From a virus: 64,000 nt of DNA. The notes beneath the pieces were generated by a model, which did no database searches, was not told the DNA's origin, and saw nothing but the letters and a program-made list of their open reading frames with translations. The stretch lies in IMG/VR virus record IMGVR_UViG_3300042516_003202; one strand, 5' to 3'. Made by a program: the position numbers and the translations under genes. This document shows, piece by piece, positions 20,401 to 48,979 of the stretch (position 1 is the first letter of the stretch; every line of letters starts with the position of its first letter).

Positions 20401-21160
20401 AATTTTTAGTTATTAAATCTGCTATTACAATTTTTCTTCTTAAATACTCTGAAGATGATGGTTTAAGAACAAAATCTTCTGTATTTAAAACCTTTACTTC
20501 TTCTCCATACAAAACTCTAAAAAGTATTTTTATGGATTCTTCAGTGCCTTTAGATTTATAAAAAGATTTAATTTGAGAAATAAAATTATCTACGTTTAAA
20601 TCTGGAGTAAATTTTATATCTTCAAATCCAGGCGCGAAGAGATATTTTAATCTTTTATAAAAATTTTGTAAAAATAATGCGCTTAAATTTACGACAGTAG
20701 AATTATTTTTATGCGATGCTGCAATTGAAGTTGAAAAAATTAATTCTCCTGGATTTAAAGGATCGTCAAAAGAAGTAATTCCACAAAATCCACGGATACA
20801 ACCAGTAAATTTATTTCCTTCAATTTTTTTATAAGTAATAATCTCATCATCTATTTTTAATAACCCATATTCATCAGGAAATCCTTTTGTTGAGGACACG
20901 GTAATTTCCGAAGATGAAGCAGTAATATTTGAGGAAAGAGTAGTTTTCCCCGAAATAACTTCCGGTGTTATTGACTGAAATCTTAAATATTGATCTAAAT
21001 TTTCTGCAATATCTACAGGACCGCCAGGGTACTCCTGAGATTTATAATAATCTTTAAGAAATTCAGAAAACTTTGGATTTTCATCTAAAAAGAATTCTGG
21101 TATCTGATTGTCAATTACTTCTTGTATTTTTACTCTTTGCTCAAATCCTGTTGATATCAT
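8441..21160 (-). CDS. gp7: baseplate wedge initiator gp7-like (giant)
   Basis: 4239 aa; N-terminus with FLKDYYKSQE and FYKSKGTEESIKILFRVLYG, many GSGY beta-repeats, QDNDYYQNLAYSIKS motif; between gp6 and gp8. Confidence 0.85.
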   Translation of the reverse strand: MISTGFEQRVKIQEVIDNQIPEFFLDENPKFSEFLKDYYKSQEYPGGPVDIAENLDQYLRFQSITPEVISGKTTLSSNITASSSEITVSSTKGFPDEYGLLKIDDEIITYKKIEGNKFTGCIRGFCGITSFDDPLNPGELIFSTSIAASHKNNSTVVNLSALFLQNFYKRLKYLFAPGFEDIKFTPDLNVDNFISQIKSFYKSKGTEESIKILFRVLYGEEVKVLNTEDFVLKPSSSEYLRRKIVIADLITKNCNPENLIGQEIRSNNQLYSGPVSRVDILTRNNKALYRIELFYGYDDSDLTDGNFKITPKTKITETVSVGSSIINVDSTVGFGKTGTFISNSQQISYTNKNLTQFFGCTGITSSIPCSSDLYFNSDVIYGYENGDINKKIEFIVTGSLSNISKVDNLNLFREGETISVKNYGDKILNPLSERSFKQKLFNSWVYNVKSRYEIQSYSNGSSQIVLYESPDKSSLKNGDYVDILKQNSEDIILENVLVQNINSNIVQLDTEIQNSPLNQKLSIRRNYKYASSSNIPLTYSKILSDVQNTYVENNDFIYVSSNSLPSYNITTKIKKISKTISQLSDVNNVFGGLNAVTRKYSTLSFDNEVPFITGDEVVYTHTTTTPISGLSNNAVYYVEVLDQKNKIKLYSSRSFLSTGDNIELEINENLGTHTFTLRSQTSEKLLPSNSLIKFPISQKYEDYVKKIETKPGEVGVLVNGVSIINYKSDDRIYYGPINNISVINSGEDYDVIDPPKVIISNPTVGIGTTALANLIVEGSIKEVLVDPQKVSLERVITVSVSGGNGKGAILEPIISDQYKEIEFNAAQYEFGGGINISEETITFLENHDLVDGKKIVYSSNGNPQLGVGSFGLSNTDQDLYLINGAIYYPKILNTKSIKLFNTLSDLNSGINTVGFTTVNTGGIHKFRFYDPIRVLSQIRVVDGGEGYANKVLRVKPSGISTQNYTINFKNHGFKDGDIIEYSSTGGYMSGLSTDKQYNVLKVDDDYFRLSEIGGISVGFSKSNYERRKYVKFESSGSGYQVFSYPEVKINIDAEYSQSTGIITATPVVRGKISGVYVYENGTNYGSQILNFNKKPTISLQKGRGAQLKPIVINGRIVKVEVQSRGLLYSKSLDLQVVGNGIGAKLRAVVVNGSITSVIVINGGIGYGNNTKIIINSPGRNAILFPEVRYLTLNNNFRYSDEYLTPREGGMTYGIVGYSTNRDGTQFDEPRSTREGHSKIIGWSRDGYPIYGPYGHNDPKNLNSEIVILKTGYSLSGSFIENRPSLNNFPLGYFVDDYKFTNSGDLDESNGRYAVTPDFPNGTYAYYVGVTSSQSSSNLIPNFPYFIGNSYRSIVSDDFILDQNDDFNETTLLRNTFPHRVSQKYSKSDFIPLLNEFSKQITTIEQTKPGVIDKIDVVNSGQDYAIGDIVVFDNDGSSGSGANAIVSEIYNKDDIVSLETSYKVYENATFVWKDSNTVSVRILPYHELDNNSNVQIIGLSTSLKNITGDHNIKVDRYYSRLTKSLSSAASSGISTDIYVSEIPKNISIGSSITIGSEVALVLNVFEEQNIIKVRRGQTGISHTVSELISYYPNTFEIKTNTNFFDSSFSKTNYFNPQKSVGFGTDVGTITNVQRNIGNYSNQISIPIQSIYIPNHGLKNNQKVLLTISPLGVPISVSNTEDTSGGNTFNLPLSGPSQEVYVINKSKDYIGIVTQVGLTTQTSGLFFIGAGVGGSIDYDDYKIQTQLTGYENITGTVRKIQTKVSISTDHTLVNGDTIKLNVVPNISSGGIETSSSLKISYDSEYNKLLVNRVGFGSTSVSTLNNSISINSHGFYTGQKIFYYSQDANIQNLSKGEYYVYVVDSNTIKLSETYLDSISFPPKLISIGSSGGNIQYVSKINSQILSVKNNFLEFNLSDSSLSGYDFELFYDKEFNKNFVSSGISTIFNITKNGVVGVNGSLKLKFDKNLPVSLYYSLTKNGKSIFTNTNEQDYQIKFINSLYNNTYKISGVAGTHFYISLQEIPEKSYYLKSECETISYSTNSKTSIGPISNISLLNEGSGYKSLPFISGISTSPSTVGGIFGSRTGGKNAVLDIKSKSIGKLEFLNLSSQGYSYVSDNTLRPKADISTQLFLKNADEIDRVEVIEGGKNYISKPNLILLNTSSRKVIDSGKFDVEMSASSISEVKVISKPNGLENVVHQLYTVNNSNGISISGITTYTNGIVHCKLRSPGISAFSTPPFESGDYVFIEGLQKRSYEDEFGNITSPGNGFNSSDHGYNFFRVVEFINSPGNTLLKYDISPYTSYAGDPALSQTVYSVAVNKKNYPVFKLNQNSKQFFENEVLYINGTLTDITVKSLLYKAITITNSDVFFVKKGDEILGSVSGNKCIVGNIIEYDGEFIISSSLTSDLGWKTNVGRLDDDLQVLQDNDYYQNLAYSIKSSKEYNKFSTILNTLAHPAGTKSFANTGISSSAKTSIGSTQGISITLDFNDEKRVDVIKNFDLAFDYDSTTNSSSYIRLLNKKLTDYIECKTNRVLQIDDISNSFSSSEFNKDVFLDSLTYPVTDFYSKFLIQISEIRESDSPYQLSEVVVINDFKNTFTLNKSDVYSSRLLGTFNGEISLSGDPVLRFNPADPYETSYRLKIYREYFNESYNKQSGFKDYGFIRLYGNTDKLLPQVGVSTVIFRGLSTQFNAVYASAIVVDTDNYNLNYYEVVGCYDGTDTHISEFYFDNQKSLGGSSGSHIGTFGLNVSSGVITLDFTNNKTNNILIKSKSVGFGTTASGIGTYRFLVEDQLEETERTSRIESNYSKTVGISSIKIFDSSLESGFRSIVKISVGSTIAMHQVTTICDELSISLQSDPFISVGSPNGIGTFSASLFGSIACINFHPDPKFASSQLTIQSYDHILYKEIDEFNPPDVLTYGSAIERQYLSRYGSINNFGKDRLDFDLNYNRIPIFVKSFNPKKESVLNKETGVFTIKDHFFETGEELIYTPGSTLSNIPPLPVGIGSTLVGGITLIADSIVGFNTLIGLASTVGISTGSFSISGEGFSNGNTTIVSIGETYSYFIGNVTSVGSTVITGIGNTEILKIGSGIYSGNNNSLGTIISIGINSITASSVIPIGSDRLYYSNNLKPALTLSNVSTATTFRKTYSTGITTDICPSKVYAIKIDRNTFKITGVSGGSGIGFTFTNVGSGNLHKFEMVKKMEKSVITVNGVNQYPLTYTSLTYTLSESVGVGTTFIRFSGIGSIYSGDILKGKDEYLNVINVGFGTTVKGPITGIGSIPLVQVIRASLGSTETFHTSGDVFRLYKGAYNIVGNKIWFADAPDGKGNNDVLSENYLPSPKSTFNGRVFLRKDYTGNQIYDDISQNFTGIARTFTLYKNEVPVANAIPGNNLVFINDVFQTPDTQNNTGNNYEILSSPGISSVSFTGIKIPNTNDVFTVDYDVNQNELPRGGILVSLAFTGGLGYAPLVGIPSSMIDLKVGAGGSIRSIGFTTSIVVGIATTGMIGINTDVITGITTTSISVGQKVIDILNEQTLNLVNPIVPNLTRFLQYDTLVSSIGINSIFISKSTTNNVAFSTTFGFDIGPIIGSGYYNTISIGITDSLHNGTPANIKAFVGSGGTVTSFNIVSGGSGYVNPYVAIPDPSYERLPIVGVSKVSVGNTTKCGIGVSLTFSVSPSIEVGVNSTYYRISDYELNKSGYGFELGDIFQPVGLTTAQGLQKPITPILFTVTDIKADSFASWQVGEFDYIDNIKQLQDGIRTRFPLYKNGELLSFEINRLDPDSSLIDFDSVLLIYINGVMQEPDVSYRFTGGTTFSFLEAPKPSDNISIFFYRGTSGVDSVEVDITQTIKPGDSVQINKNDLIPQTIGQDPRLVSYILSSDIFETGIYLGDGVDQINPRPINLITQKRDLIINETFYSKERDSIEPLVFPTAKIIKSFTPSDNFIFVDDAQFFNYEENNFGNEVRSFDGLVIANQDPVSAAISAVVSTGSTSISSISIINGGSGYLGIGNSILLKTRSVGVGGSNAIIYATVSSAGTITSPINIVSPGFGYTHTNPPQVIAPVPTANKEIIKDIIFVDGFSGIITGITTTSGIGTDLAIKFFVKYDQDYDPNTLKVGYPIYVFDTTVGSGLTSIDSNNTEKVAIGTEYCNNIYYVHSITNLNLQGSITCNIMSNSNITGISTFGNTKKGEFSWGRFSGLKRSDNINSISVNLNEYTTSVGLTTYPTIQRRKFGLRSTGALSKIDL

Positions 21161-26359: not shown

Positions 26360-26389
26360 AAAAAAAAGGGAGGGCGTCGCCGCCCCCCT
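26360..26389 (-). terminator. intrinsic terminator closing the early cassette array
   Basis: GGGGGGCG-GCGA-CGCCCTCC stem with GNRA loop followed by T8. Confidence 0.85.
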
Positions 26390-26396
26390 GCTGCTC

Positions 26397-26588
26397 TCAC
26401 TTCACGTCGCCCAGGGCGCTGTTCGTGGTGCTCATGCGGGTGCCGCGTGAACCAGCGGCGCCGCCGTGGGTGCGAACGCGGGTGCTGCCGCCCTTGATCT
26501 GGTTCGCCCAACGGAGGGCGCGGGCACCGTGCGCCACGGGCAGGCGGGTGATGGTGAACTGGATGCCGTCGATGGTGGTGGTGGTCAT
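26397..26588 (-). CDS. early small protein (63 aa, basic)
   Basis: MTTTTIDGIQFTITRLPVAHG..; ATG directly after cassette leader. Confidence 0.8.
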   Translation of the reverse strand: MTTTTIDGIQFTITRLPVAHGARALRWANQIKGGSTRVRTHGGAAGSRGTRMSTTNSALGDVK

Positions 26589-26613
26589 CGGGTGCGGTGC
26601 GGTGTGCTCTGGA

Positions 26614-26642
26614 ATTGTAGACGATGGAGGGGCAGGCGTCAA
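26614..26642 (-). promoter_or_regulatory. sigma70-type early promoter TTGACG-17-TACAAT (type example of cassette)
   Basis: -35 at 26637-26642, -10 at 26614-26619, 17-nt spacer. Confidence 0.85.
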
Positions 26643-26657
26643 CCTGCCCCGCAGGGG

Positions 26658-26918
26658 TCAGGCGGCGATCTGCTGCAGGTCGCCGTTGCGGCGGGCGTCG
26701 CTGATCAGGCGCCCCAGGGAGAGGCCCAGCAGGTCGGGCGAGGAGATCACCTCTGCCAGGTGAGCAGCGAAGGCGGGGGTGGCATCGAACCCGTAGGCAC
26801 GGTCGGCGCTGCTCTGGAAGATGATCTCAACAGCGGTGCCGTCGATCTCAACGTTGGCGATGGCGCTGCTCTGCTCGGTGGTGAAGGAGCGGAAGATGGG
26901 GGCGGTAGCGGTGGTCAT
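26658..26918 (-). CDS. KTSC-like domain protein
   Basis: SSAIANVE..VEIIFQSS..AYGF..SLGRLISDARR resembles the KTSC pattern; cassette context. Confidence 0.55.
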   Translation of the reverse strand: MTTATAPIFRSFTTEQSSAIANVEIDGTAVEIIFQSSADRAYGFDATPAFAAHLAEVISSPDLLGLSLGRLISDARRNGDLQQIAA

Positions 26919-26987
26919 GAGGTGCGGTTGCGTGTGCTTGAGAATTGTACCATGGAAAGGGGGCGCCCTTGGGCACCCCCGTGGGGG

Positions 26988-27230
26988 TCAGAAGTTGTCT
27001 GCCACGTCCCAGCGAATCACCTGCAGGTCAGGGCTGAGGCGGGCGCAGGTCTCCCATGCCTGCTGGGCGGTGGGTGCCATGTAGGCCATGACCTCATGGC
27101 GCTGGCGGCGGGTGTTCCAACCGCTGAACAGGAACTTGTACTCCTGCTCCTCAGCGAACACGTCTTCCCAGTCCTGCTCGGTGGGGATGTACGCTTCGTC
27201 GATCTGGGCGTAGTCGGTGAAGGCGGTCAT
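26988..27230 (-). CDS. early small protein (80 aa)
   Basis: MTAFTDYAQIDEAYIPTEQDW..; cassette context. Confidence 0.8.
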   Translation of the reverse strand: MTAFTDYAQIDEAYIPTEQDWEDVFAEEQEYKFLFSGWNTRRQRHEVMAYMAPTAQQAWETCARLSPDLQVIRWDVADNF

Positions 27231-27299
27231 CGGGTGTGGTGCGGTTTGCTCTGGAATTCTACAGGATGGGAGGGCAGGGGTCAACCTGCCCCTGGAGGA

Positions 27300-27560
27300 T
27301 CAGATGCCTGCCACGGCAGCAGCGATGCGGTCCCGCTTGCGGATCGCGGTGGGCACGATGAACCACAGGTCGCGCTTCCCATTATCGGAGCGGGTGGCAT
27401 CCAGAACGCCTGCCTTCTCAAGGTCGACCATGAGGGCGTGGATGGTGCCCTTATGGCGGCGGGGGTCCATGCCCATGGCGCGAACCAGGTCGCTGCAGGT
27501 CATCGGGCCGTCGTTGATCAGGCGGGTGCGGATCGCGGTGCGGATGATGGAGGTCAGCAT
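27300..27560 (-). CDS. putative winged-helix DNA-binding protein (86 aa)
   Basis: L..DGPMTCSDLVRAMGMD..IHALMVDLEKAGVL..W resembles wHTH; cassette context. Confidence 0.5.
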   Translation of the reverse strand: MLTSIIRTAIRTRLINDGPMTCSDLVRAMGMDPRRHKGTIHALMVDLEKAGVLDATRSDNGKRDLWFIVPTAIRKRDRIAAAVAGI

Positions 27561-27631
27561 CTGAGCGGGGTGCGGTGTGCTTGAGAATTCTACAGCATGG
27601 GAGGGGGCACCCGTGGGCACCCCCGTGGGGG

Positions 27632-27811
27632 TCAGCGGAGGCGCTGCAGGTCGATCAGGCAATCCGCGAAGGAGTTGCTGCCGTTGATCTGCAGCGCCGC
27701 TGCTGCAACCGCTTCCTTGAGGGTCGCTGCCTGGATCGTGAGGATCTCAGACTCGATGCCCTCGGCACCGATCCAGGTGGCGTCAAAGCGGAAGGTGGTG
27801 GCGGTGGTCAT
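27632..27811 (-). CDS. early small protein (59 aa)
   Basis: MTTATTFRFDATWIG..; cassette context. Confidence 0.75.
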   Translation of the reverse strand: MTTATTFRFDATWIGAEGIESEILTIQAATLKEAVAAAALQINGSNSFADCLIDLQRLR

Positions 27812-27879
27812 GGCGCTCTGCCGTTGGTACCTGAGAATTCTACAGCATGGGGGGCAGGCGTCAACCTGCCCCGTGAGGA

Positions 27880-28071
27880 TCAGAAGCGCACTGCCCAGTT
27901 CGGGTCGGTGAGGCAGTTGACCCAGGCGCACCAGGTGCCGTTGCTGCTCACGCAGAACAGGTCGTTACCCTTGCGCTGCTCAACCACCACCACGGGGTCG
28001 CCTGCCATCTGGTTTGCCAGGCGGTTTTTCGCCTTGCTGCTGATCGGGGTCAGGGTCACGGTCATGGTCAT
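27880..28071 (-). CDS. conserved cyanophage small protein (63 aa)
   Basis: PISSKAKNRLANQM..VEQ..W.VRF family; cassette context. Confidence 0.8.
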   Translation of the reverse strand: MTMTVTLTPISSKAKNRLANQMAGDPVVVVEQRKGNDLFCVSSNGTWCAWVNCLTDPNWAVRF

Positions 28072-28099
28072 CGGATCGGTTGCGGTTGAGAGAATTCTA

Positions 28100-28297
28100 T
28101 CAGGGCATGGGGCAGTCACCGAACATCTCCTCCCACAGGTCGATGATGCGTTCGGGTTGGCGTGGAGCAGGTGCCCACTCCAGGGGGCAGGCAACGCCCA
28201 GGCGGGTGATCGGGTGTTCGGTGTAGGTATTGTCGTCGCTGCAGTAGGAGAGGCTCACGTCCTGGTAGGGGGTGCCGATGCGGATGCCAGTCTTCAT
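28100..28297 (-). CDS. early small protein (65 aa)
   Basis: MKTGIRIGTPYQ..; after truncated cassette. Confidence 0.7.
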   Translation of the reverse strand: MKTGIRIGTPYQDVSLSYCSDDNTYTEHPITRLGVACPLEWAPAPRQPERIIDLWEEMFGDCPMP

Positions 28298-28333
28298 GGG
28301 AGGCGGTGCGGTGTGCTCTGGAATTGTAGACGA

Positions 28334-28492
28334 TCAGCGGCGGGTGTCACCACACCATGCAGGGTCTGCCTGGCAGAGTGCTTCGGCGGTCTGCTCCTGG
28401 TAGACGTTGATCGTGGCGTTTGCACGGTGCAGCGTAACGGTGCCCAGCAGCACGGCAAAGGCGGCAAAGGCGGTGGGGAGGATGTGGCGCAT
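28334..28492 (-). CDS. small secreted/membrane protein (52 aa)
   Basis: manual translation MRHILPTAFAAFAVLLGTVTLHRANA..LCQADPAWCGDTRR; hydrophobic N-terminus. Confidence 0.7.
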   Translation of the reverse strand: MRHILPTAFAAFAVLLGTVTLHRANATINVYQEQTAEALCQADPAWCGDTRR

Positions 28493-28546
28493 GGTTGGGG
28501 GGGGTGTAGGTAGGGAGGGAAGGGGGGCGGTTGCCCCCCGCAGAGA

Positions 28547-28741
28547 TCAGAACAGCAGGTTGGCGATGCTCTGGAGAACGTCGCCGTACTCACCCACGAT
28601 GTTGCCAGCAGCGTCGCGAATGTAGGCATAGTCGCCGCTCTCATCGTGCATGGAGAAACAGAGGTCCATGGCACGGTCCAGGTCGGTCACGGTCTCTGCC
28701 TCACCGAGGGCAGGGCAGGCAACGTAGAAGGTGGTGGTCAT
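28547..28741 (-). CDS. conserved cyanophage small protein (64 aa)
   Basis: YVACPALGEAE..DLCFSMHDE..IVGEYG. Confidence 0.8.
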   Translation of the reverse strand: MTTTFYVACPALGEAETVTDLDRAMDLCFSMHDESGDYAYIRDAAGNIVGEYGDVLQSIANLLF

Positions 28742-28809
28742 GAGGTGCGGTGCGGTGTGCTTGAGAATTGTAGCGTATGGAGGGGGCACCCGTGGGTGCC
28801 CCGTGAGGA

Positions 28810-28989
28810 TCAGGCGTCCATCGCCTCCTTCAGTGCCTGGTACGCTGCCAGGTAGTAGTCGGCGTCGGCGTCGTTGCCCTTGAGGCGCTCATCACATGCC
28901 AGGCAGAGCACAGCAGTGCGCAGGGTGCTCCAGCGTGCCTCAGGCAGGGTCACGGTCTTCAGGGTTTGGGGCATCCAGGTGGTGGTCAT
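28810..28989 (-). CDS. early small protein (59 aa)
   Basis: manual translation MTTTWMPQTLKTVTLPEARWSTLRTAVLCLACDERL..; cassette context. Confidence 0.75.
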   Translation of the reverse strand: MTTTWMPQTLKTVTLPEARWSTLRTAVLCLACDERLKGNDADADYYLAAYQALKEAMDA

Positions 28990-29056
28990 GAGTCCTGTGC
29001 GGTTTGCTCTGGAATTCTACAGCATGGGGGGCAGGCGTCAACCTGCCCCGTGAGGA

Positions 29057-29221
29057 TCAGTCAGCGTAGAGGCGGCGGAAGTCCTCCACGAACTCACGTG
29101 CCTGGTCGCCGCTCATGTTGCACACCATCTCACGGGCGACGGTTTCCCAGGAGAATTCGTCTGCCAGGTCATAGATCGCGGAGCGTGCCTCAGAGGCGGT
29201 CAGGCGGGTGGCGGTGGTCAT
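29057..29221 (-). CDS. early small protein (54 aa)
   Basis: manual translation MTTATRLTASEARSAIYDLADEFSWETVAREM..; cassette context. Confidence 0.75.
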   Translation of the reverse strand: MTTATRLTASEARSAIYDLADEFSWETVAREMVCNMSGDQAREFVEDFRRLYAD

Positions 29222-29290
29222 GAGGTGCGGTGCGGTGTGCTTGAGAACTGTAGCGTATGGGGTGGGGCACCCGTGGGTGCCCCGTGAGGA

Positions 29291-29470
29291 TCAGGCGCAG
29301 ATGACCTCTGCCATCTTGTGCAGCAGGGCGTCAACCCGCTCCTGGCAGCGTGCCTTGTAGGCAGGGTGAGCAAGGCGCAGGTCGATCAGGGCCTCCTGCA
29401 GGTGCGCTTCCAGGTAGCGGCGCTGAGCAGCGGCGCTGAGCAGATCAAAGGCGGGGGAGATGGCGATCAT
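29291..29470 (-). CDS. early small protein (59 aa)
   Basis: manual translation MIAISPAFDLLSAAAQRRYLEAHLQE..; cassette context. Confidence 0.75.
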   Translation of the reverse strand: MIAISPAFDLLSAAAQRRYLEAHLQEALIDLRLAHPAYKARCQERVDALLHKMAEVICA

Positions 29471-29537
29471 CGGATCGGTTGCGGTTGCTTGAGAACTATA
29501 GCGTATGGGAGGGGCACCCGTGGGTGCCCCGTGAGGA

Positions 29538-29741
29538 TCAGTCTGCCAGGTTTAACCACAGGGCGTCGGCAACGGCGCTGCCAGCGCCCAGGATGTCGTC
29601 GCGAACGATCATGCGCAGTGCCTCTGCGCCATCGGGCAGGCGGTGGATGGTGCGGATCCAAGAGGCGCCCAGCAGGTTGCCGCGGCCTTCGGAGCACTGG
29701 GCGATCAGGGCAGCAAGGGCGCGAACGTCGGCGTGAGTCAT
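29538..29741 (-). CDS. early small protein (67 aa)
   Basis: MTHADVRALAALIAQC..; cassette context. Confidence 0.75.
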   Translation of the reverse strand: MTHADVRALAALIAQCSEGRGNLLGASWIRTIHRLPDGAEALRMIVRDDILGAGSAVADALWLNLAD

Positions 29742-29805
29742 CGGTCGGTTACGGTTGCTTGAGAACTGTAGCAGGTAAAGGGGGGGCGGTTGCCCCCCGT
29801 GAGGA

Positions 29806-30066
29806 TCAGGCGAACCAGCGGCCTGCGTCGTCGATCCCACCTGCCCAGCGGCGCTGGGTGCTCTCACCTGCGGGGATCTTCTCCAGATCAACCCAGCGGC
29901 GGCGCTCAATACCCTGCGACATGGGAGGGAAGGAGATGGTGCGATCCTCCAGGCGGCAGGCAAGGGGGGTGGCAGCAGCATGGTAGCGGGCGCTGCCGCC
30001 CCAACCAATGTAGACAGTGCCGTGAGCAGAACCCTGGCAGATGTGGTGGGAGGTGGGGAGGGTCAT
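29806..30066 (-). CDS. early small protein (86 aa)
   Basis: MTLPTSHHICQGSAHG..; cassette context. Confidence 0.7.
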   Translation of the reverse strand: MTLPTSHHICQGSAHGTVYIGWGGSARYHAAATPLACRLEDRTISFPPMSQGIERRRWVDLEKIPAGESTQRRWAGGIDDAGRWFA

Positions 30067-30164
30067 GGTCGGGAAGCGGTGCGGGGTCCGTTTGCCCCGC
30101 TTGAGAGAATACTAGGCGATGGAGGGGGGCACCCGTGGCAGATACCGCACAAGTTTACAAACGT

Positions 30165-30365
30165 TCACACTTCGCGGGTGCTGCACCATCCGCTGATCGG
30201 GCATCGCGGGAGGCGGGCAGCACCGTGGCGATCGTAGGCATCCTGCTGCACGATCCCTGCCAGTTCGGCGGTGCCCACGTGCTGGGCAGATTGCTTGCCG
30301 CTGGCGTGAGTGATCACCCATACGGTCTGGCGGGTGTGGAGGTTGCTGGCGATGTTGAAACGCAT
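30165..30365 (-). CDS. early small protein (66 aa)
   Basis: MRFNIASNLHTRQTVW..; cassette context. Confidence 0.7.
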   Translation of the reverse strand: MRFNIASNLHTRQTVWVITHASGKQSAQHVGTAELAGIVQQDAYDRHGAARLPRCPISGWCSTREV

Positions 30366-30461
30366 TGGGGGCGGTGCTGGTGTGCTCTGGTGAAGGGGTG
30401 GAGGCAAAGGGGAAGGGCAGAGCCCCTCCGCTGTGCCACCTAGCGGGTTGGCACAGCCCGA

Positions 30462-30611
30462 TCAGAAGTCGATGGCGTTGAGTGTAGGTTCTGCACCATA
30501 CTCATCACATTCGTCAACACTATCCCCCAGAACAATAGAGTCAAGAATTTGGAGGATTTGGTCGCCGTTGTTGCCAGAGCGGAGGAGAGAAAGCGCAAGG
30601 TCGCGGGTCAT
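30462..30611 (-). CDS. conserved cyanophage small protein (49 aa)
   Basis: manual translation MTRDLALSLLRSGNNGDQILQILDSI.. Confidence 0.8.
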   Translation of the reverse strand: MTRDLALSLLRSGNNGDQILQILDSIVLGDSVDECDEYGAEPTLNAIDF

Positions 30612-30668
30612 CGTAGTTTTGAAATTAGGGTTACTGGGTGTCTTTAAGGGCGCACCCGTTCCCGTTGA

Positions 30669-30830
30669 TCAGCGTTCCAGTTGTGCCAGCGAACTGGGGG
30701 CGATGTGAGAAGGCGAACCGCAGGAGCGATAGAACTCAACCATGCGATCTGCCTCCTCTTTAGTGTTGAACCACTGGGAGCGCCACTCACACTGATTATA
30801 GGGGGTTTGGTAGCGAACTTCGAAGCGCAT
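30669..30830 (-). CDS. conserved cyanophage small protein (53 aa)
   Basis: manual translation MRFEVRYQTPYNQCEWRSQWF..FYRSCGSP. Confidence 0.8.
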   Translation of the reverse strand: MRFEVRYQTPYNQCEWRSQWFNTKEEADRMVEFYRSCGSPSHIAPSSLAQLER

Positions 30831-30896
30831 GAGGTTTGGGTGGTGAACTTGTACAGTGTAGCACGTGGTGGGGGGCAGGAGCGCCCCCCGTGAGGA

Positions 30897-31163
30897 TCAG
30901 AGACCGAATACGTCGGCGTTGATCTCTGCTCGGTTGATCTCAGGATCGTTCCACATCACACCATCAGGAGTTTGCTTGCTGCCACAGTCATAGAGCACTT
31001 CGATGAGATCCTCATAACAGCAAACGTCACCGTTTTTGATCGTGTTGTAGACACCCTCATCGTTGTTGATGTAGAGTGCAACATTCCAGGTCTTGTAGTT
31101 AGTCCAGTCGCCGTAAGCAACATCCAGCAGGTTGGTCTGGTGAGTGCGGGTTGCGGTTGCCAT
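30897..31163 (-). CDS. conserved phage protein (WTNYxTWNV family)
   Basis: WTNYKTWNVALYINNDEGVY..TPDGV.W motifs. Confidence 0.8.
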   Translation of the reverse strand: MATATRTHQTNLLDVAYGDWTNYKTWNVALYINNDEGVYNTIKNGDVCCYEDLIEVLYDCGSKQTPDGVMWNDPEINRAEINADVFGL

Positions 31164-31228
31164 GGGGTTCGGTGTTGAACTTGTTCAGTGTAGCACGTGG
31201 TGGGGGGCAGGAGCGCCCCCCAGGGGGA

Positions 31229-31408
31229 TCAGATGGCGCTGGTGCCCTTGCTCACCCAGAGTGCCAGGCGCATGGTGCTTGCCTTGCTCACCTGCTTCAC
31301 GGTGCGCCCGTGTGCCAGGGCAGCAGTCTTCAGGCAGGTGCGCTTGGCGTCCTCATTGCCCACCAGGATCAGGCGAGCGTACTGGAGCAGTTGCTGTTGG
31401 GTTGCCAT
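31229..31408 (-). CDS. early small protein (59 aa)
   Basis: manual translation MATQQQLLQYARLILVGNE..; cassette context. Confidence 0.72.
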   Translation of the reverse strand: MATQQQLLQYARLILVGNEDAKRTCLKTAALAHGRTVKQVSKASTMRLALWVSKGTSAI

Positions 31409-31475
31409 GGTCGGTTCGGGTGTTGAACGTGTTCAGTATAGCATGGGTTGGGGGCGCCCAGCGCCCCCAGGGGGA

Positions 31476-31652
31476 TCAGTCTTCAGGTCCGAAGCAGCAC
31501 TCCAGGGAGAATGCTTCCAGTTCCTGGTCGTCGTCCCAACCGTAGAGGTCCCAACCTGGGCCCTCCTCCTCATCACACACGGCGTTCCAGTCATCCTCAG
31601 TGGGCACGAACTGCTCGTCGATCTGAGCGTAGTCGGTGAAGGCGTAGGTCAT
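31476..31652 (-). CDS. acidic small protein (58 aa), N-terminal paralog of 26988-27230
   Basis: manual translation MTYAFTDYAQIDEQFVPTEDDWNAV.. Confidence 0.75.
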   Translation of the reverse strand: MTYAFTDYAQIDEQFVPTEDDWNAVCDEEEGPGWDLYGWDDDQELEAFSLECCFGPED

Positions 31653-31727
31653 GGGGTGGATCCCTCAAGAACAAACGTAGTATGGCATGGGGGTGGGGGG
31701 CGTTTCAACCCCCCGTGTGCCAGTTGA

Positions 31728-31967
31728 TCAGGCGGCGATCACCTGCAGTTGCTCGCTGCGGATCGCGGTGTTGATGAAGCGCCCCACGGATTCGCCCTGT
31801 GCGATAGTGTCATTCACTTGTGCAACAAACTGTTCAACATCAGCAACACCGTAGGTATAGTCACGCCCACCGTTGAAGGTGATGGTCACTTGCCCACTGT
31901 TGCTGTTTTGATCAGTCTTTGCAGCAGTCATGTTCTCGATGGCGCTGGATTCGAATTTGGTAAACAT
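31728..31967 (-). CDS. KTSC-like domain protein
   Basis: ESSAIEN..VTITFNGGRDYTY.V..ESVGRFINTAIR. Confidence 0.6.
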   Translation of the reverse strand: MFTKFESSAIENMTAAKTDQNSNSGQVTITFNGGRDYTYGVADVEQFVAQVNDTIAQGESVGRFINTAIRSEQLQVIAA

Positions 31968-32100
31968 AATTAAAAAAAAGTAAAGGGTTTGAGTGAAGTG
32001 TTTTGAGCGGGATGCTTCACCCCCGCTGATGTGATCAGTATGGCACGGGTTGGGGGTGGGGTCAACCCCCTGTGTGCCACCTTGCCAACTGGTCTACCGC

Positions 32101-32283
32101 TCAGTTTGTATACACTACGTCTGCGTAGTTGTTGTCTAGCATCGCTGCAGCGTAGAGTTTAGGATTGAGATGATAATAGCCGCTGTTCAGTTCAATCCAG
32201 AACGCAGGCATTTCATTCTCACGCCACCAGTAAAGTGCGTCTTTGAAACTATCGAATCCGCAGTTGAGTAGAGCGAACATCAA
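32101..32283 (-). CDS. hypothetical protein
   Basis: 60-aa ORF with ATGA overlap to upstream gene. Confidence 0.6.
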   Translation of the reverse strand: MMFALLNCGFDSFKDALYWWRENEMPAFWIELNSGYYHLNPKLYAAAMLDNNYADVVYTN

Positions 32284-32453
32284 CCCTCCAGCAGTTCGGG
32301 ATAGTATTCCTTAACCTCCTCGGTCAATTCTTCATCCGAATACTTGTCATAACCCTCGCTCAGGTAGTCGTAGCAGAGCATGGTCATCGTCTTGAGGTCC
32401 ATGTCATCCAGCATCTGCTGGATGAGTTGCTCCTGGAGTTCAGTGCGGTTCAT
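32280..32453 (-). CDS. conserved cyanophage small acidic protein (57 aa)
   Basis: manual translation MNRTELQEQLIQQMLDDMDLK..YYPELLEG. Confidence 0.75.
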   Translation of the reverse strand: MNRTELQEQLIQQMLDDMDLKTMTMLCYDYLSEGYDKYSDEELTEEVKEYYPELLEG

Positions 32454-32605
32454 TTCAGAAGTTGGGTGAAGTTGTCGACGATAATTTGGCAGGCAAGATC
32501 TTGAACCTCAGAGAGGTAATCTGCCTCACCGAACTGTGACTCTAGCAGGGAGATCAGATCCTCTTGGATTTGTTCACGAACTGAAATAATGTCAGTTTGG
32601 GTCAT
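32450..32605 (-). CDS. small acidic protein (51 aa)
   Basis: manual translation MTQTDIISVREQIQEDLI..ACQIIVDNF; overlapping start/stop. Confidence 0.7.
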   Translation of the reverse strand: MTQTDIISVREQIQEDLISLLESQFGEADYLSEVQDLACQIIVDNFTQLLK

Positions 32606-32871
32606 CAGTTTGCGTAGATGGACATGTTTTTACGCATACGAATGTAGTCATCAATCATCTCACCAACTTGTTCGTAAATGTAGGAAGAACCGCCTACATC
32701 ACAGAGAACATCTTCAGTGAGAACTTTAGAGAAACGCACTTCATTATCGTTAGCATCGAACTCAAAAACATCCTCTCCAGTATATACAAACGCAGCACAA
32801 CCTGCGTCCTCACCTTGTTGCTCAATCAGTTTGTCGATTGAGTTACGAAGTTCAGAAAGAGTGCGGTACAT
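32605..32871 (-). CDS. conserved cyanophage hypothetical protein
   Basis: MYRTLSELRNSIDKLIEQQGEDAGCAAFVYTGEDV. Confidence 0.75.
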   Translation of the reverse strand: MYRTLSELRNSIDKLIEQQGEDAGCAAFVYTGEDVFEFDANDNEVRFSKVLTEDVLCDVGGSSYIYEQVGEMIDDYIRMRKNMSIYAN

Positions 32872-33035
32872 CAGTCGTTGGTGGGGTGATTGACAATTTG
32901 ATCTTCAATTTGGTTGGCAAGATCTTCCAACCACTCACGATCTTCGTCGTCTTCATACTGTGCATTCTCACGAACAAATCGCATGAGAAACTCAATCTGT
33001 TCGTCAGTGAAATGATACTCTTTGAGTTCAGTCAT
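32871..33035 (-). CDS. small acidic protein (54 aa)
   Basis: manual translation MTELKEYHFTDEQIEFL.. Confidence 0.65.
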   Translation of the reverse strand: MTELKEYHFTDEQIEFLMRFVRENAQYEDDEDREWLEDLANQIEDQIVNHPTND

Positions 33036-33181
33036 CATACCTCATCCCGCATTTCAGAGATCTTGTCATAGAGTTGCTCAACGTCAACGTCAAGGTGCTC
33101 GCTCAACATGCACCAGTCGTGCATCTCCATGATCGCCAGGATGGCGTCGAGTTCTTCAAAGGTGAGGGTGGTAAGTGTCAT
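33035..33181 (-). CDS. small acidic protein (48 aa)
   Basis: manual translation MTLTTLTFEELDAILA.. Confidence 0.65.
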   Translation of the reverse strand: MTLTTLTFEELDAILAIMEMHDWCMLSEHLDVDVEQLYDKISEMRDEV

Positions 33182-33183
33182 GA

Positions 33184-33312
33184 TCAGTAGTCGTAGTTGC
33201 TGTTAAGAAACTGGTTGAAGGATTGCTCCTCGTTGTCATCCTCCTCATAGAGATCTTCAATGTCATAGATCTCACCAGGAGCATCTTGAATCTCAAGCAG
33301 ATAGGTGTCCAT
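33184..33312 (-). CDS. small very acidic protein (42 aa)
   Basis: manual translation MDTYLLEIQDAPGEIYDIEDLYEEDD..; follows palindrome-type promoter. Confidence 0.7.
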   Translation of the reverse strand: MDTYLLEIQDAPGEIYDIEDLYEEDDNEEQSFNQFLNSNYDY

Positions 33313-33379
33313 GGGTTTGGTGGTGAACTTGTTCAGTATAGGGGGTGTGTGGGGCGCTGGGCGCCCCGTGTGTGCCGCT

Positions 33380-33715
33380 TTACTGATTGGTCAGGGCACC
33401 CTGCTCGTTGAGCACACCCCAGGCAATGCCGCTGCTATACAAACCGATGTAGCGGTTGCCAACACTCAACCCAACGATTTCATCGCCTGGTTCACCGATA
33501 AAGTTGACACCAAGGTAGAAGAATTGGGTGATCATTTCAGGGGTTTGGAACTTCATGGTCTGGATCTTCTCCCAGAGGATAGTAGCAACAACGTAAATCA
33601 CTGCTGCCACGGTGAGAACAACAGTCCGCACGTTGGCATAGAGTTTCTGATAATCAACCTGCGCAAGGAAGGCGATCAGGTCGTCGGTGGGGGGGAAGGA
33701 TTTGGTGAGGTTCAT
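33380..33715 (-). CDS. membrane-anchored hypothetical protein
   Basis: MNLTKSFPPTDDL.. with hydrophobic VVLTVAAVIYVVATIL segment. Confidence 0.7.
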   Translation of the reverse strand: MNLTKSFPPTDDLIAFLAQVDYQKLYANVRTVVLTVAAVIYVVATILWEKIQTMKFQTPEMITQFFYLGVNFIGEPGDEIVGLSVGNRYIGLYSSGIAWGVLNEQGALTNQ

Positions 33716-34199: not shown

Positions 34200-34284
34200 T
34201 AGGAGCAGGGAGACTTGAACTCCCACGGGCGTTATGCCCAACAGATTTTAAGTCTGGTGTGTCTACCGATTCCACCATGCTCCC
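34200..34284 (-). tRNA. trnL-UAA: tRNA-Leu(UAA), intronless, CCA not encoded
   Basis: GGGAGCA/TGCTCCT acceptor, GGTAGAC D-loop, CT-TAA-AA anticodon loop, long variable arm, GGGAG-TTCAAGT-CTCCC T-arm. Confidence 0.95.
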
Positions 34285-34294
34285 TTATGTGTAT

Positions 34295-34323
34295 AGTATA
34301 CGATATCTCGTGATGATTGTCAA
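34295..34323 (-). promoter_or_regulatory. sigma70 promoter of tRNA-Leu TTGACA-17-TATACT
   Basis: consensus hexamers, 17-nt spacer containing ACGAGAT. Confidence 0.85.
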
Positions 34324-34432: not shown

Positions 34433-34903
34433 TTACCAATGTTTGTCAAACACGAACCCGTCCACGAACTCGTAGTCATAACGAAGTCCCTGGTCCCAGG
34501 TTGCTTGCCAATCAACTACAACGAACGCAGGAATGTCCAGTGCATAGCAGTCAGTGGTAGTCTGCTCTGCAAAGTCTGCCTCCGATTGATAATGCCCCCG
34601 ATAGGCATCTCCAAAGTACTCCAGATCACTTTCTTCCCAGATAGACAAGAATGCTTCTACAGCATCCTGACTATACAAACCACACAGGCGATCGTAGATT
34701 TCCTGATACTCCTCGGAGATTTCAGGTTCGGGGACCTTAGTCAGCAAACCCTTTGCATTCAACAGTTCTACGTAGAACATGGTGAACTTGAGTTTGCCGT
34801 CGATCTCATAACCACATGCCCGAACGATATCAGACATCTTGGCAGGCGGTTCTTGTGCCTGCATTTCAGTCACTTTAGAAACGAGAGCGGTGCCAGTCAG
34901 CAT
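34433..34903 (-). CDS. cyanophage AbrB-like N-terminal domain fused to ArdA-like antirestriction domain
   Basis: MLTGTAL..IVRACGY..FTMFYVELLNAKG (cyAbrB-like) + DAYRGHYQSEADFAE..VDWQATW..YDY..GFVF (ArdA-like, acidic). Confidence 0.65.
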   Translation of the reverse strand: MLTGTALVSKVTEMQAQEPPAKMSDIVRACGYEIDGKLKFTMFYVELLNAKGLLTKVPEPEISEEYQEIYDRLCGLYSQDAVEAFLSIWEESDLEYFGDAYRGHYQSEADFAEQTTTDCYALDIPAFVVVDWQATWDQGLRYDYEFVDGFVFDKHW

Positions 34904-34983
34904 GGGGATGTCCCTCAGGTACGAATGTAATGTAGCAGGGTTTGAGGTGCTTGTAAAGCACCGAGGTGCCAGTTCAGAAGGCG

Positions 34984-35154
34984 TCACACATCATAGCAGA
35001 TGTTGGCACGCTTCATCTCACCATACCATGCCATGTTAACGTCGTCCATGATGGACTTGAGAGACATGCAGAAATTAGCATGTTCTGCCTGGGAATTCAT
35101 GAGTTCCGTGCGGTGCTCATGACGCTCAACGATCTTGGTGTTGTAGTAGTTCAT
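34984..35154 (-). CDS. early small protein (56 aa)
   Basis: manual translation MNYYNTKIVERHEHRTELM..; palindrome-type promoter upstream. Confidence 0.7.
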   Translation of the reverse strand: MNYYNTKIVERHEHRTELMNSQAEHANFCMSLKSIMDDVNMAWYGEMKRANICYDV

Positions 35155-36798: not shown

Positions 36799-37548
36799 AT
36801 GGCAAGGGGTATTATCTACCTAATCACAAACAAAGAGAATGGATTAAAGTACGTGGGAAGCACTCTCTTACCCATGAACAAAGAATGGCAGGCACACATT
36901 CAATCAGCAAACAAAATGTCTCCTGAACCATTACACAGAGCATTTCGTCAATATGGAATACATCGTTTTACAATACAAGAACTAGATGAATGTGATGAAA
37001 GAGAATTGAATGAGAAAAGAGAACAGTGGATAAGACACTATGACTCTTATAATGGAGAGAACTATAACTATCGTGTCTTTGAAGAAGAAGAAGATGATGA
37101 AGAAGATTTAGTACCTATCATACCAGAAACAATTAATAAACCAAAGTATAGGCATACATTTAACAATCAAGATCGTAAAAACATTAAACGTACTGGACAT
37201 AAAGTACAAGGTAAGCATCTTGAAACTGGTGAGATCAAGATATGGGAATCGGCAGCACTAGCAGCAGAAGAAGTGACAGGTAATGCAAGAAAGAATTCAA
37301 ATATAATGACTTGTGCCCGTAACTGTTATAGATGTTATGGATATAAATGGTCAGTTGTTGAAGAACATAATAAGAAAAGATCTGTGTTTGGCATACACAA
37401 AAAAACGGAGAGATTAGGTCCCCGTTATGAGAGTATTACTGAAGCAATGAAAGCACTACGTGGCAATAGTGCTGGATTAGGTTTAATTAAAAGTTTGAAA
37501 CATCCTGGGCGATATAGTTATAGAGGATTCTATTGGTATTATGGTTGA
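36799..37548 (+). CDS. GIY-YIG family protein with two NUMOD1/IENR1-like DNA-binding repeats (possibly inactive)
   Basis: GIIYLITN..KYVGST, RAFRQYG..FTI, NYN; C-terminal WESAALAAEEV..CYGYKW and YESITEAMKAL..YRGFYW. Confidence 0.8.
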   Translation: MARGIIYLITNKENGLKYVGSTLLPMNKEWQAHIQSANKMSPEPLHRAFRQYGIHRFTIQELDECDERELNEKREQWIRHYDSYNGENYNYRVFEEEEDDEEDLVPIIPETINKPKYRHTFNNQDRKNIKRTGHKVQGKHLETGEIKIWESAALAAEEVTGNARKNSNIMTCARNCYRCYGYKWSVVEEHNKKRSVFGIHKKTERLGPRYESITEAMKALRGNSAGLGLIKSLKHPGRYSYRGFYWYYG

Positions 37549-48439: not shown

Positions 48440-48979
48440 TCAACCCTTATGATTCTTATCAAAAGGTGCTTTGAAATAATGATTCGCAGCAGAATGAAAA
48501 ATCATCACACCTTCTGGATTCATAAAACCAGGAGAAGCAAGAGAACCATAATTCCAGAGACGATCCATTTCATCATCAAGAACATTTGTGCTAAACTCTC
48601 CAGTATAAAGAGTCGGAACAACATAGCAACAAGCAGGAAGATTTTCTTGATTCCAGATGCTCACATTAAACAAAGAGAATCGTTTCTCCCCTTTGGGAAG
48701 ATCATATCCTCGTTGAATTCCACTACCCCACCATTCACCATGATGACGACCAGGGCCAAGTTTCATCAGTTCATCTTTGTTTTCGGTTGCCCAACGATGA
48801 AAACCAAAGTTGTCGGACTCTGCACTCAACCAACGATTGCGACTTCCAATGAACATATCTCCATCATCAGTAATGTAGATAATTCCATTAGTTCCGTCAA
48901 TTTTTTCCGTGACCACACATTCCTTATGAAGACGGGGAATTTTAGGAAATGCAACAAATTCGGGATATATAGTGGTCAT
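48440..48979 (-). CDS. RNA ligase (Rnl2-like adenylyltransferase domain only)
   Basis: FPKIPR, TEKIDGTN (motif I), SRNR, GEWWG, FSLFN, EGVMI. Confidence 0.85.
   Translation of the reverse strand: MTTIYPEFVAFPKIPRLHKECVVTEKIDGTNGIIYITDDGDMFIGSRNRWLSAESDNFGFHRWATENKDELMKLGPGRHHGEWWGSGIQRGYDLPKGEKRFSLFNVSIWNQENLPACCYVVPTLYTGEFSTNVLDDEMDRLWNYGSLASPGFMNPEGVMIFHSAANHYFKAPFDKNHKG

Follow-up and report, generated by a model that had tools for sequence, protein, structure and literature searches.

We analysed a 64,000-nucleotide (nt) stretch of viral DNA (IMG/VR record IMGVR_UViG_3300042516_003202; hereafter the window) that carries, on the minus strand at 26397-31967, a dense array of very small genes separated by near-repeated linker modules. 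We consider it likely that the window comes from an uncultured T4-like cyanomyovirus of the Kyanoviridae type, and that the array is its early hyperplastic region, in which genes are shuffled through repeats of the early promoter plus stem-loop (PeSL) type and not by an integron. The most striking property of the array, missing from an earlier note on this DNA, is its contrast in GC content and codon usage: the island has about 60% GC, compared with roughly 30% for the genome.

The sequence and a list of its open reading frames (ORFs) revealed 21 ORFs in succession, encoding 49-88 amino acids (aa) each and all ending in TGA. The intergenic spacers measure 28-133 nt, the majority 64-75 nt, and make up 24% of the island sequence. 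Fifteen spacers are full modules of ~70 nt. Two are truncated, with the -10 box and leader remaining (before the ORFs at 28297 and 28071), and four are divergent or lack the -10 box (before the ORFs at 30611, 30365, 30066 and 28492). The earlier note, which named no strand, had described about 20 micro-genes of this size with repeated modules, which agrees with our counts. Its statement that a ~70-bp module precedes each ORF holds for the 15 full spacers, but not for the other six, and the single string that it gave for the module start, TGATCCTCAC, occurs exactly in seven modules, the others reading TGATCCCCCT, TGACCCCCAC and similar. Four ORFs are indeed exactly 180 nt long, as it had noted, but their sequences are unrelated and their equal length is not significant, with a p of about 0.07 under uniform lengths. 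The limits given for the array proved too narrow, as a partial module (32032-32070) and a further full module (33307-33393) lie beyond them.

Alignment of the 15 full spacers showed a constant order of elements: TGAYCCnCAC, a hairpin of 7-9 G:C-rich pairs (G4-6...C4-6), a spacer of 6-12 nt, TAnAnT, a C/A-rich and G-poor leader of ~25 nt, and ATG. The TAnAnT box is invariant across the alignment, and ACC-ACC often follows the ATG directly. The leader contains no Shine-Dalgarno sequence. Module GC content is 57-66%. A covariance model of the module recovered 16 copies (E 2e-17 to 5e-5), all on the minus strand within 26586-33393, and nothing convincing elsewhere in the window; Rfam contains no family matching the modules. 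All four hairpin alleles named previously are present, A in three exact copies and two variants, B in three exact copies and one variant, and C and D twice each, and we found at least three more. The modules of cassettes 12 and 17 have a 49-bp perfect repeat in common, with copies at about 29060 and 27883.

The module hairpins fold at about -19 to -25 kcal/mol, and the last ~25 nt 5' of the AUG are mostly unpaired. Across 37 modules from five phages, 94% of the stem cells are paired and 35 cells carry double changes, compared with 11.7 in shuffles, as counted on an alignment fitted to the structure of the covariance model. None of 500 shuffles reached 35, and slid controls gave at most 11. The outer GGGG/CCCC arms are nearly invariant, and the inner stem covaries. 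A consensus scan found 18 sigma-70-like sites in 26-34.5 kb, compared with 4.6 +/- 2.3 in shuffles. In allele B, the hairpin loop holds TTGAC(G/C), 16-17 nt 5' of TAGAAT or TACAAT, so that the hairpin overlaps the -35 position. The module hairpin probably forms the 3' end of the preceding gene's mRNA or a partial terminator.

The 21 cassettes are listed below with the ORF coordinates in parentheses; labels beginning with G or L denote related contigs.

Cassette 1: 31728..32103 (ORF 31967-31728), minus strand; 79 aa, phrog_4357, paralogue of cassette 20, with homologues in G002 and G003.
Spacer of cassette 1: minus strand; 133 nt, with a hairpin containing TTGAC, a CATACT -10 box, a second leader hairpin and an AT-rich end.
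Cassette 2: 31476..31730 (ORF 31652-31476), minus strand; module and 58-aa acidic ORF, paralogue of cassette 19, precisely deleted in L151/L154.
Cassette 3: 31229..31478 (ORF 31408-31229), minus strand; module and 59 aa.
Cassette 4: 30897..31231 (ORF 31163-30897), minus strand; module and 88 aa, DUF7249 / phrog_871.
Cassette 5: 30669..30899 (ORF 30830-30669), minus strand; module and 53 aa, ratio of nonsynonymous to synonymous substitution rates (dN/dS) 0.15.
Cassette 6: 30462..30671 (ORF 30611-30462), minus strand; divergent 57-nt spacer and 49 aa.
Cassette 7: 30165..30464 (ORF 30365-30165), minus strand; 96-nt spacer with two hairpins and no -10 box, a recurrent breakpoint at position 30400, and 66 aa.
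Cassette 8: 29806..30167 (ORF 30066-29806), minus strand; 98-nt spacer and 86 aa.
Spacer of cassette 8: minus strand; half hairpin, TAGTAT and leader hairpin GCGGGGCAAACGGACCCCGC.
Cassette 9: 29538..29808 (ORF 29741-29538), minus strand; module with allele C, 67 aa.
Cassette 10: 29291..29540 (ORF 29470-29291), minus strand; module with allele A, 59 aa.
Cassette 11: 29057..29293 (ORF 29221-29057), minus strand; module with allele A, 54 aa.
Cassette 12: 28810..29059 (ORF 28989-28810), minus strand; module with allele B, TTGACG-16-TAGAAT, 59 aa.
Cassette 13: 28547..28812 (ORF 28741-28547), minus strand; module with allele A and the top covariance-model score, 64 aa, phrog_25733; homologues of about 80% nt identity in S-RSM4, S-WAM2 and S-H9-1.
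Cassette 14: 28334..28549 (ORF 28492-28334), minus strand; hairpin allele C without a clear -10 box, 52 aa.
Cassette 15: 28100..28336 (ORF 28297-28100), minus strand; truncated module consisting of TGATCGTCTACAATTC and leader, no hairpin, 65 aa.
Cassette 16: 27880..28102 (ORF 28071-27880), minus strand; truncated module in which the stop overlaps TAGAAT, 63 aa, phrog_1653.
Cassette 17: 27632..27882 (ORF 27811-27632), minus strand; module with allele B, 59 aa.
Cassette 18: 27300..27634 (ORF 27560-27300), minus strand; module and 86-aa predicted winged-helix protein.
Cassette 19: 26988..27302 (ORF 27230-26988), minus strand; module with a variant of allele B, TTGACC-17-TAGAAT, 80 aa, absent in L155.
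Cassette 20: 26658..26990 (ORF 26918-26658), minus strand; module and 86 aa, phrog_4357, absent in L151.
Cassette 21: 26397..26660 (ORF 26588-26397), minus strand; module with allele B, TTGACG-17-TACAAT, 63 aa, last gene of the array.

Several lines of evidence identify the cassettes as real genes that evolve under purifying selection. In 11 orthologue pairs between the window and related contigs, dN/dS ranges from 0.15 to 0.66, independent gene callers predicted the same ORFs on metagenome contigs, and five cassettes belong, by Pfam or PHROG match, to functionally uncharacterised phage families. Cassette 18 is, by structure prediction, a small winged-helix DNA binder (predicted local distance difference test score 89.9; closest to MarR-type regulators) and the only cassette with a recognisable fold. 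It is also the most widely conserved cassette: metagenomes yielded 396 cluster representatives, and the cluster to which it belongs has 425 members, 99% of them viral. It is missing from array G003/G005. Scans against Pfam and PHROG gave no function for 20 of the 21 cassettes, and a role in host takeover or anti-defence is a guess. A KTSC-like signal in cassettes 1 and 20 was weak (E 0.2) and was judged unreliable. As judged by eye, the N terminus of cassette 14 is hydrophobic and resembles a signal peptide, ending ...HRANA and followed by a short Cys-containing tail; this cassette may be a small exported peptide.

Relatives were found with a degenerate module pattern and the covariance model, a 14-base module seed being too unspecific in IMG/VR. 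The same architecture was recovered from IMG/VR in 13 contigs or more, and cassette-18 proteins led to about 20 further contigs from metagenomes. In all of these contigs, the GC content jumps from the AT-rich frame of gp6 and gp25 to 56-66% and then declines gradually in the upstream direction. One independent contig matches the window at 100% identity along 9.4 kb. Across 185,579 species genomes, the module pattern gave one chance match, in a Ruminiclostridium metagenome-assembled genome (9.9 bits).

Cassette content turns over rapidly between these anchors. In ten arrays, 121 small ORFs rich in GC at third codon positions (GC3) fell into 57 families, of which 29 are private to one array; the anchors are conserved. 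G002 has the order c02-c04-c03-c05 where the window has c02-c03-c04-c05 (c, cassette), with overlapping homology at modules m03, m04 and m05, and carries two extra genes between c01 and c02. The order in G001 is c03, c06, c16, c18, c02, c12. The closest comparison set comprised contigs encoding an identical or 98% identical cassette-18 protein, and contigs with (near-)identical cassette 18 show precise single losses of c02, c19 or c20. Additions comprise a 61-aa cassette at m11, the module of cassette 11 (L137), a 73-aa cassette at m17, that of cassette 17 (L138 and L140), and, at the minimal module that precedes c15, cassettes of 75 and 78 aa (L137 and L151). Replacements are larger: two other cassettes take the place of c07-c15 in L141 and L142, and one 94-aa cassette that of c07-c11 in L151 and L154. 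As contigs encoding an identical protein differ by single cassettes, they form a natural system for watching accessory-gene exchange.

Comparison of these contigs gave at least 14 distinct junction sites, all within a spacer or at most 20 nt from the end of an ORF, and 16-66 bp of module sequence are shared across every event. Crossovers lie at the hairpin foot (17-18 nt past the stop), in the interval between hairpin and -10 box, just past the -10 box and TTC, or in the shared first codons ATGACCACC. Both ends of the c02 deletion are 17-18 nt past a stop, at the hairpin foot. The leader is usually divided between neighbours: its first part goes with the upstream gene, together with hairpin and -10 box, and its final ~12 nt go with the downstream gene. 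Minimal modules without a hairpin also act as junctions. In L137 (4284-4360, corresponding to window 26916-26990), another allele replaces the module of cassette 20 and its ATG is lost, the sequence reading AGG CCC ACC instead of ATG ACC ACC; by its sequence, this is an apparent example of a cassette silenced through a module swap.

Pfam searches detected no recombinase or integrase domain in the 26 larger ORFs scanned, out of 29 ORFs of at least 130 aa in the window (minus strand, or non-overlapping on the plus strand; the other three are 1-6843, 6849-8411 and 8441-21160). Together with the varied crossover positions, this favours homologous over site-specific exchange and makes 'integron-like', the label chosen in the earlier note, the wrong one: most cassettes have promoter-type elements (a -10 or -35 consensus) of their own, and the array shows no attC/integrase logic. 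Three other proposals of that note fared better. Relatives differ in content and order, with their junctions in the modules, as exchange through the repeats would have it and contrary to the uniform order and content that the note had named as refuting it; the larger ORFs scanned include nothing integrase-like, in line with exchange without an integrase; and the comparison with PeSLs is apt in both position and junctions within the elements. Its view that each cassette is independently expressed goes beyond the sequence, in which about four to six cassettes show no recognisable promoter and the module hairpins no U-run.

In the mechanism that we favour, each linker would supply the preceding gene's stop codon, a strong GC hairpin and a -10 box of the host sigma-70 type, with some alleles displaying a TTGAC -35 in the hairpin loop. 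Further contributions would be a C/A-rich leader, short and unstructured, and in many cases the opening codons ATG-ACC-ACC. As the linkers are near-repeats, they would serve as crossover sites for the enzymes of the phage's general homologous recombination, both inside a single genome and among relatives that infect the same cell. Whole genes would thereby be deleted, inserted, replaced or reordered, with coding sequence and expression signals intact. The usual moving unit would consist of leader end, ORF, stop, hairpin and -10 box. The cassettes other than the putative winged-helix gene would be drawn from a large pool of functionally uncharacterised phage families.

The composition of the island sets it apart from its surroundings. 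Most of the window has 27-33% GC, but the value reaches 57-64% in 26-32 kb and about 47% in 32-36 kb. Genes of the island stand at a GC3 of 0.79, and those at its distal end at up to 0.89, compared with 0.14 in the structural genes. Island and structural genes use opposite sets of codons:

Leu codons: CTG 64% in the island; TTA 62% in the structural genes.
Arg codons: CGC 88% in the island; AGA 79% in the structural genes.
Ile codons: ATC 93% in the island; ATA/ATT 94% in the structural genes.
UUA, share of all codons: 0.07% in the island; 4.66% in the structural genes.
AGA, share of all codons: 0% in the island; 2.31% in the structural genes.
ACA, share of all codons: 0.07% in the island; 2.78% in the structural genes.

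Within the GC-rich codons, the island prefers C-ending over G-ending ones and avoids NCG and CGG (CGC 88% vs CGG 2%; ACC 83% vs ACG 4%; GCC 46% vs GCG 10%; CCC 56% vs CCG 13%). GC3 is high in both members of orthologue pairs at synonymous divergences (dS) of 0.3-2.1, and the codon bias thus appears not to be that of a transient import. Among population variants, third-position singletons favour AT>GC per site in the island (13 changes at 118 sites vs 29 at 624) and the opposite direction in the flank (42/262 vs 28/103). The difference in direction has a binomial p of 1.6e-4, with implied equilibrium GC3 values of about 0.70 and 0.37, on counts that are small and include some 'singletons' on long branches. 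Intergenic sequence of the island shows no singleton bias towards G/C.

The neighbouring tRNA gene is relevant to this contrast:

tRNA-Leu (anticodon UAA): 34200-34323, minus strand; near-consensus promoter TTGACA-17-TATACT, 2.2 kb upstream of the array.

It is 81% identical at the nt level in G002, and it decodes a codon that is nearly absent from the island and is the commonest Leu codon of the structural genes. Cyanomyoviruses normally stay AT-rich and compensate with tRNAs (PMC3152331), and in a Synechococcus of 66% GC, the T4-like cyanophage Syn9 is limited by the codons UUA, AGA and ACA in combination with tRNA-Leu(UAA) (PMC11726456). The literature that we searched contained no account of GC-rich early islands in cyanomyoviruses.

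The C-ending codons of the island are probably those preferred by a high-GC picocyanobacterial host. As the island avoids UUA, AGA and ACA, the genes expressed first could be translated by host tRNAs before phage tRNAs accumulate, and the adjacent tRNA-Leu(UAA) would prepare for the AT-rich later genes. We tentatively propose, at somewhat less than an even chance, that a host-codon early array is selected and maintained. The phage would then keep two codon sets, with instant expression of the array from host-type promoters, independent of phage tRNAs; the array would be immune to resistance acting through scarce tRNA-Leu(UAA), tRNA-Arg(UCU) and tRNA-Thr(UGU); and the GC-rich linkers would double as recombination seams for a population-wide gene pool. 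If true, the composition would be an adaptive, maintained feature of an early-expression platform and not an accident of gene transfer. As the genes expressed first would avoid the codons that are limiting in high-GC Synechococcus, this step in a translation-based arms race is directly testable.

Other origins of the composition have to be weighed against maintenance by selection. The island could be a recent import of foreign DNA whose donor, the host or a phage of another type, was rich in GC; it would not yet have decayed, and its codons would reflect its history. We regard this as unlikely. The rapid cassette turnover and the many private cassettes would suit it, as would the steady climb of GC3 to the distal end and its abrupt drop at the terminator, which could mirror residence age, and the lower GC richness of upstream cassettes conserved in all relatives. 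Some cassettes also match or exceed gp25 in similarity between the window and G003 (63-68% vs 47% aa); that dS is lower in cassettes than in the backbone is an ambiguous sign of transfer, since a strong codon bias itself reduces dS. Import is nevertheless disfavoured by the high GC3 of both orthologue copies, by recent third-position changes running opposite to those in the flank, and by the same GC jump, with different cassettes, in every related lineage examined. In addition, the cassette families examined are viral, including the cassette-18 cluster, the module pattern is absent from the species genomes apart from the one chance match, and the specific choice among GC-rich codons fits translational selection. 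GC-biased gene conversion at a repeat-driven recombination hot spot, raising GC as a by-product of shuffling, seems quite unlikely. The most repeat-dense part of the array is also the most GC-rich, the L148 lineage combines few model-matching modules with lower GC3, modules are swapped by conversion-like events (L137, before c20), and the per-site G/C substitution bias of the island fits conversion as well as selection. Conversion should not tell C from G at third positions, yet the island does so strongly, and its intergenic singletons are not biased towards G/C. GC-biased conversion is not known from T4-type recombination. Biased conversion and repeated import from a GC-rich cassette pool are possible contributors to the composition.

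A different kind of rival concerns the exchange itself. In an integron-type site-specific system, the GGGG...CCCC hairpins would be attC-like and recognised by the cassette-18 protein or by an unrecognised recombinase. The near-invariant outer arms beside a covarying inner stem, the two ends of the c02 deletion at the hairpin foot and the fact that a small DNA-binding protein is the predicted product of the most conserved cassette all point that way, and Arbiol et al. speculated on a protein binding GGGG...CCCC (PMC2839356). We nevertheless consider such a system very improbable: among the larger ORFs scanned, none had a domain of the tyrosine or serine recombinases, the several junction positions per module with their 16-66 bp of shared sequence are a signature of homologous exchange, modules without a hairpin serve as junctions, array G003/G005 does without cassette 18, and most cassettes have their own promoter-type element, unlike those of integrons. 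Finally, the abrupt change from 36% to 55-64% GC within 1 kb could suggest that a GC-rich fragment of another organism was joined to an AT-rich phage contig during assembly. Both island junctions are spanned in the window, and the same frame with a GC-rich array recurs in independent contigs from many samples and assemblers (IMG/VR, ENA, JGI and Logan), which excludes such a chimera.

Several observations weigh against PeSL-type shuffling of a host-codon early array. A recognisable -35 of the TTGAC type is present in only about seven modules, and four to six cassettes have no convincing -10 box or recognisable promoter. The module hairpins are not followed by a U-run and are therefore not intrinsic terminators by the usual rule. 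The PeSL of RB49/phi1 includes an AT-rich UP-like tract, which the modules lack: the 10 nt preceding their hairpin read TGAYCCnCAC. The covariation count is subject to the fitting of its alignment to the modelled structure. Intergenic breakpoints are also expected from survivorship alone, as events that cut genes are lost, so the case for repeat-mediated exchange rests on the shared homology. As to codon usage, the L148 lineage has the same architecture with a much weaker GC enrichment, and the description of the codons as host-like draws on the literature and on general background about Synechococcus codon usage.

The genes around the array place the window among the T4-like cyanophages. Directly downstream lie a conserved 253-aa protein, a gene resembling S-adenosylmethionine decarboxylase, gp25, gp6 and then giant structural genes; gp25 and the gp6-like protein have Pfam matches as T4-type baseplate genes. 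All BLAST matches in the phage collection were to Synechococcus phages (myoviruses). The array was not found in any cultured phage of the collection, and its position is syntenic with variable regions of S-RSM4 and of the freshwater phage S-SRM01. The frame of S-SRM01 is the closest, and at this frame S-SRM01 has only 40-48% GC and no modules. In S-RSM4, a homologue of cassette 13 is followed by one weak, AT-richer module copy (14.5 bits). This homologue (NC_013085, ~5900-6143) lies on the strand opposite the annotated coding sequence SRSM4_165, and the annotation of the record could have the wrong strand. On its upstream side, the array is followed by conserved small genes, a weakly ArdA-like protein and the tRNA-Leu(UAA). 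The features at either end of the array are as follows:

Array-end terminator: 26388-26360 (within 26360..26396), minus strand; GC hairpin and T-run, the sole canonical intrinsic terminator of the array, across which GC3 falls from 0.89 to 0.26.
Upstream continuation: 32101..33393, minus strand; seven small ORFs of 42-88 aa with GC3 of 0.38-0.72, kept in relatives.
DUF7326 ORF in the upstream continuation: 32280-32453, minus strand.
Head of the upstream continuation: 33307-33393, minus strand; one more full module.

Several further features were observed in and around the array. A second hairpin family occurs in the 5' leader, 3' of the -10 box, with consensus GCGGGGCAAACGGACCCCGC and a conserved loop, CAAACGGA. 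It lies at 30081-30100 and 32006-32027 on the minus strand of the window and, among others, at L148:6964-6983, L141:1837-1856 and L132:13923-13942; 18 fetched loci match. In the L148/L149 lineage it stands directly 5' of the cassette-18 gene. The conservation of its loop suggests a binding site for a protein or RNA. On the plus strand, ORFs of 372 aa (26466-27584) and 312 aa (27575-28513) run antisense to the cassettes and are most likely stop-poor artefacts of high GC; spurious long antisense ORFs of this kind in GC-rich islands are a trap for automatic genome annotation. The weak ArdA antirestriction match (34433-34987, minus strand; 156-184 aa; Pfam E 3.5e-5, below the curated cut-off) is kept in related contigs (family F22, 81% aa identity with G002). 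A GIY-YIG domain protein of the free-standing homing endonuclease type is encoded 5 kb upstream of the array (36799-37548, plus strand). The AT-richer part of the same one-directional block encodes an RNA-ligase-domain protein (48440-48979, minus strand; E 4.5e-12) and an N6/N4 DNA methylase (51094-51858, minus strand; Pfam E 4e-32). The giant structural ORFs occupy 1-21160 on the minus strand (>2281 aa and 4239 aa; GC3 about 0.14), and their homologues on related contigs have YHYH-domain matches.

The array resembles several known systems in part. With integrons, it shares a dense one-directional arrangement of short, mostly unknown genes, imperfect inverted repeats and large exchangeable pools. 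It differs in having no attI or single Pc promoter, no integrase in the ORFs scanned and promoter-type elements of its own, as well as in its repeats, which are not attC-like and within which junction positions vary and share homology. The morons of lambdoid phages, as described by Hendrix, Juhala and colleagues, are autonomous units, each with promoter, gene and terminator, whose composition is atypical. The cassettes are like them in being single genes with their own putative promoter and a downstream hairpin, a deviant base composition and presence or absence among relatives. Morons, however, occur singly, inserted among essential late genes, and their expression is from the prophage, whereas the array concatenates at least 21 units in the probable early region of a lytic phage, with one repeated linker mediating exchange. 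Like the T4-like cyanophages that compensate with tRNAs (PMC3152331, PMC11726456), the phage is AT-rich and has a tRNA-Leu(UAA), and UUA, AGA and ACA are abundant in its structural genes. Unlike the uniformly low GC described there, a 6-kb block is recoded to a GC3 of 0.8-0.9, giving two codon sets; the array thus departs from the textbook view of cyanomyoviruses as uniformly AT-rich and reliant on their own tRNAs.

The closest parallel is with PeSLs, which were described in the T4-type phages RB49/phi1, T4/PST and KVP40/nt-1 (Arbiol et al. 2010, PMC2839356; Comeau et al. 2014, PMC4122927). Those papers do not mention cyanophages, and a study of the cyanophage S-PM2 did not see dense PeSLs (PMC4503421). 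In both systems, a stem-loop (GGGG...CCCC, as in RB49) and a sigma-70-type promoter, putative in the array, lie between small ORFan genes in a hyperplastic T4-like region. The elements also contain the junctions of indels, replacements and reorderings between close relatives, some of them in the interval from -10 box to ATG, as described for RB49/phi1 (PMC2839356), and there is no dedicated recombinase, as far as the ORFs scanned here show. The array differs in its host group and in having no AT-rich UP element, Shine-Dalgarno sequence or U-run. Its hairpin overlaps the -35 position rather than lying upstream of it, and both the stop codon and, in many cases, the first codons belong to its element. 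GC richness marks the array throughout, and its codon usage is opposite to that of the rest of the genome. For RB49, terminator activity and mini-circles were shown experimentally (PMC2839356). PeSL shuffling has been worked out in a few pairs of coliphages and vibriophages; the same logic would operate here, at high density, in environmental cyanophages.

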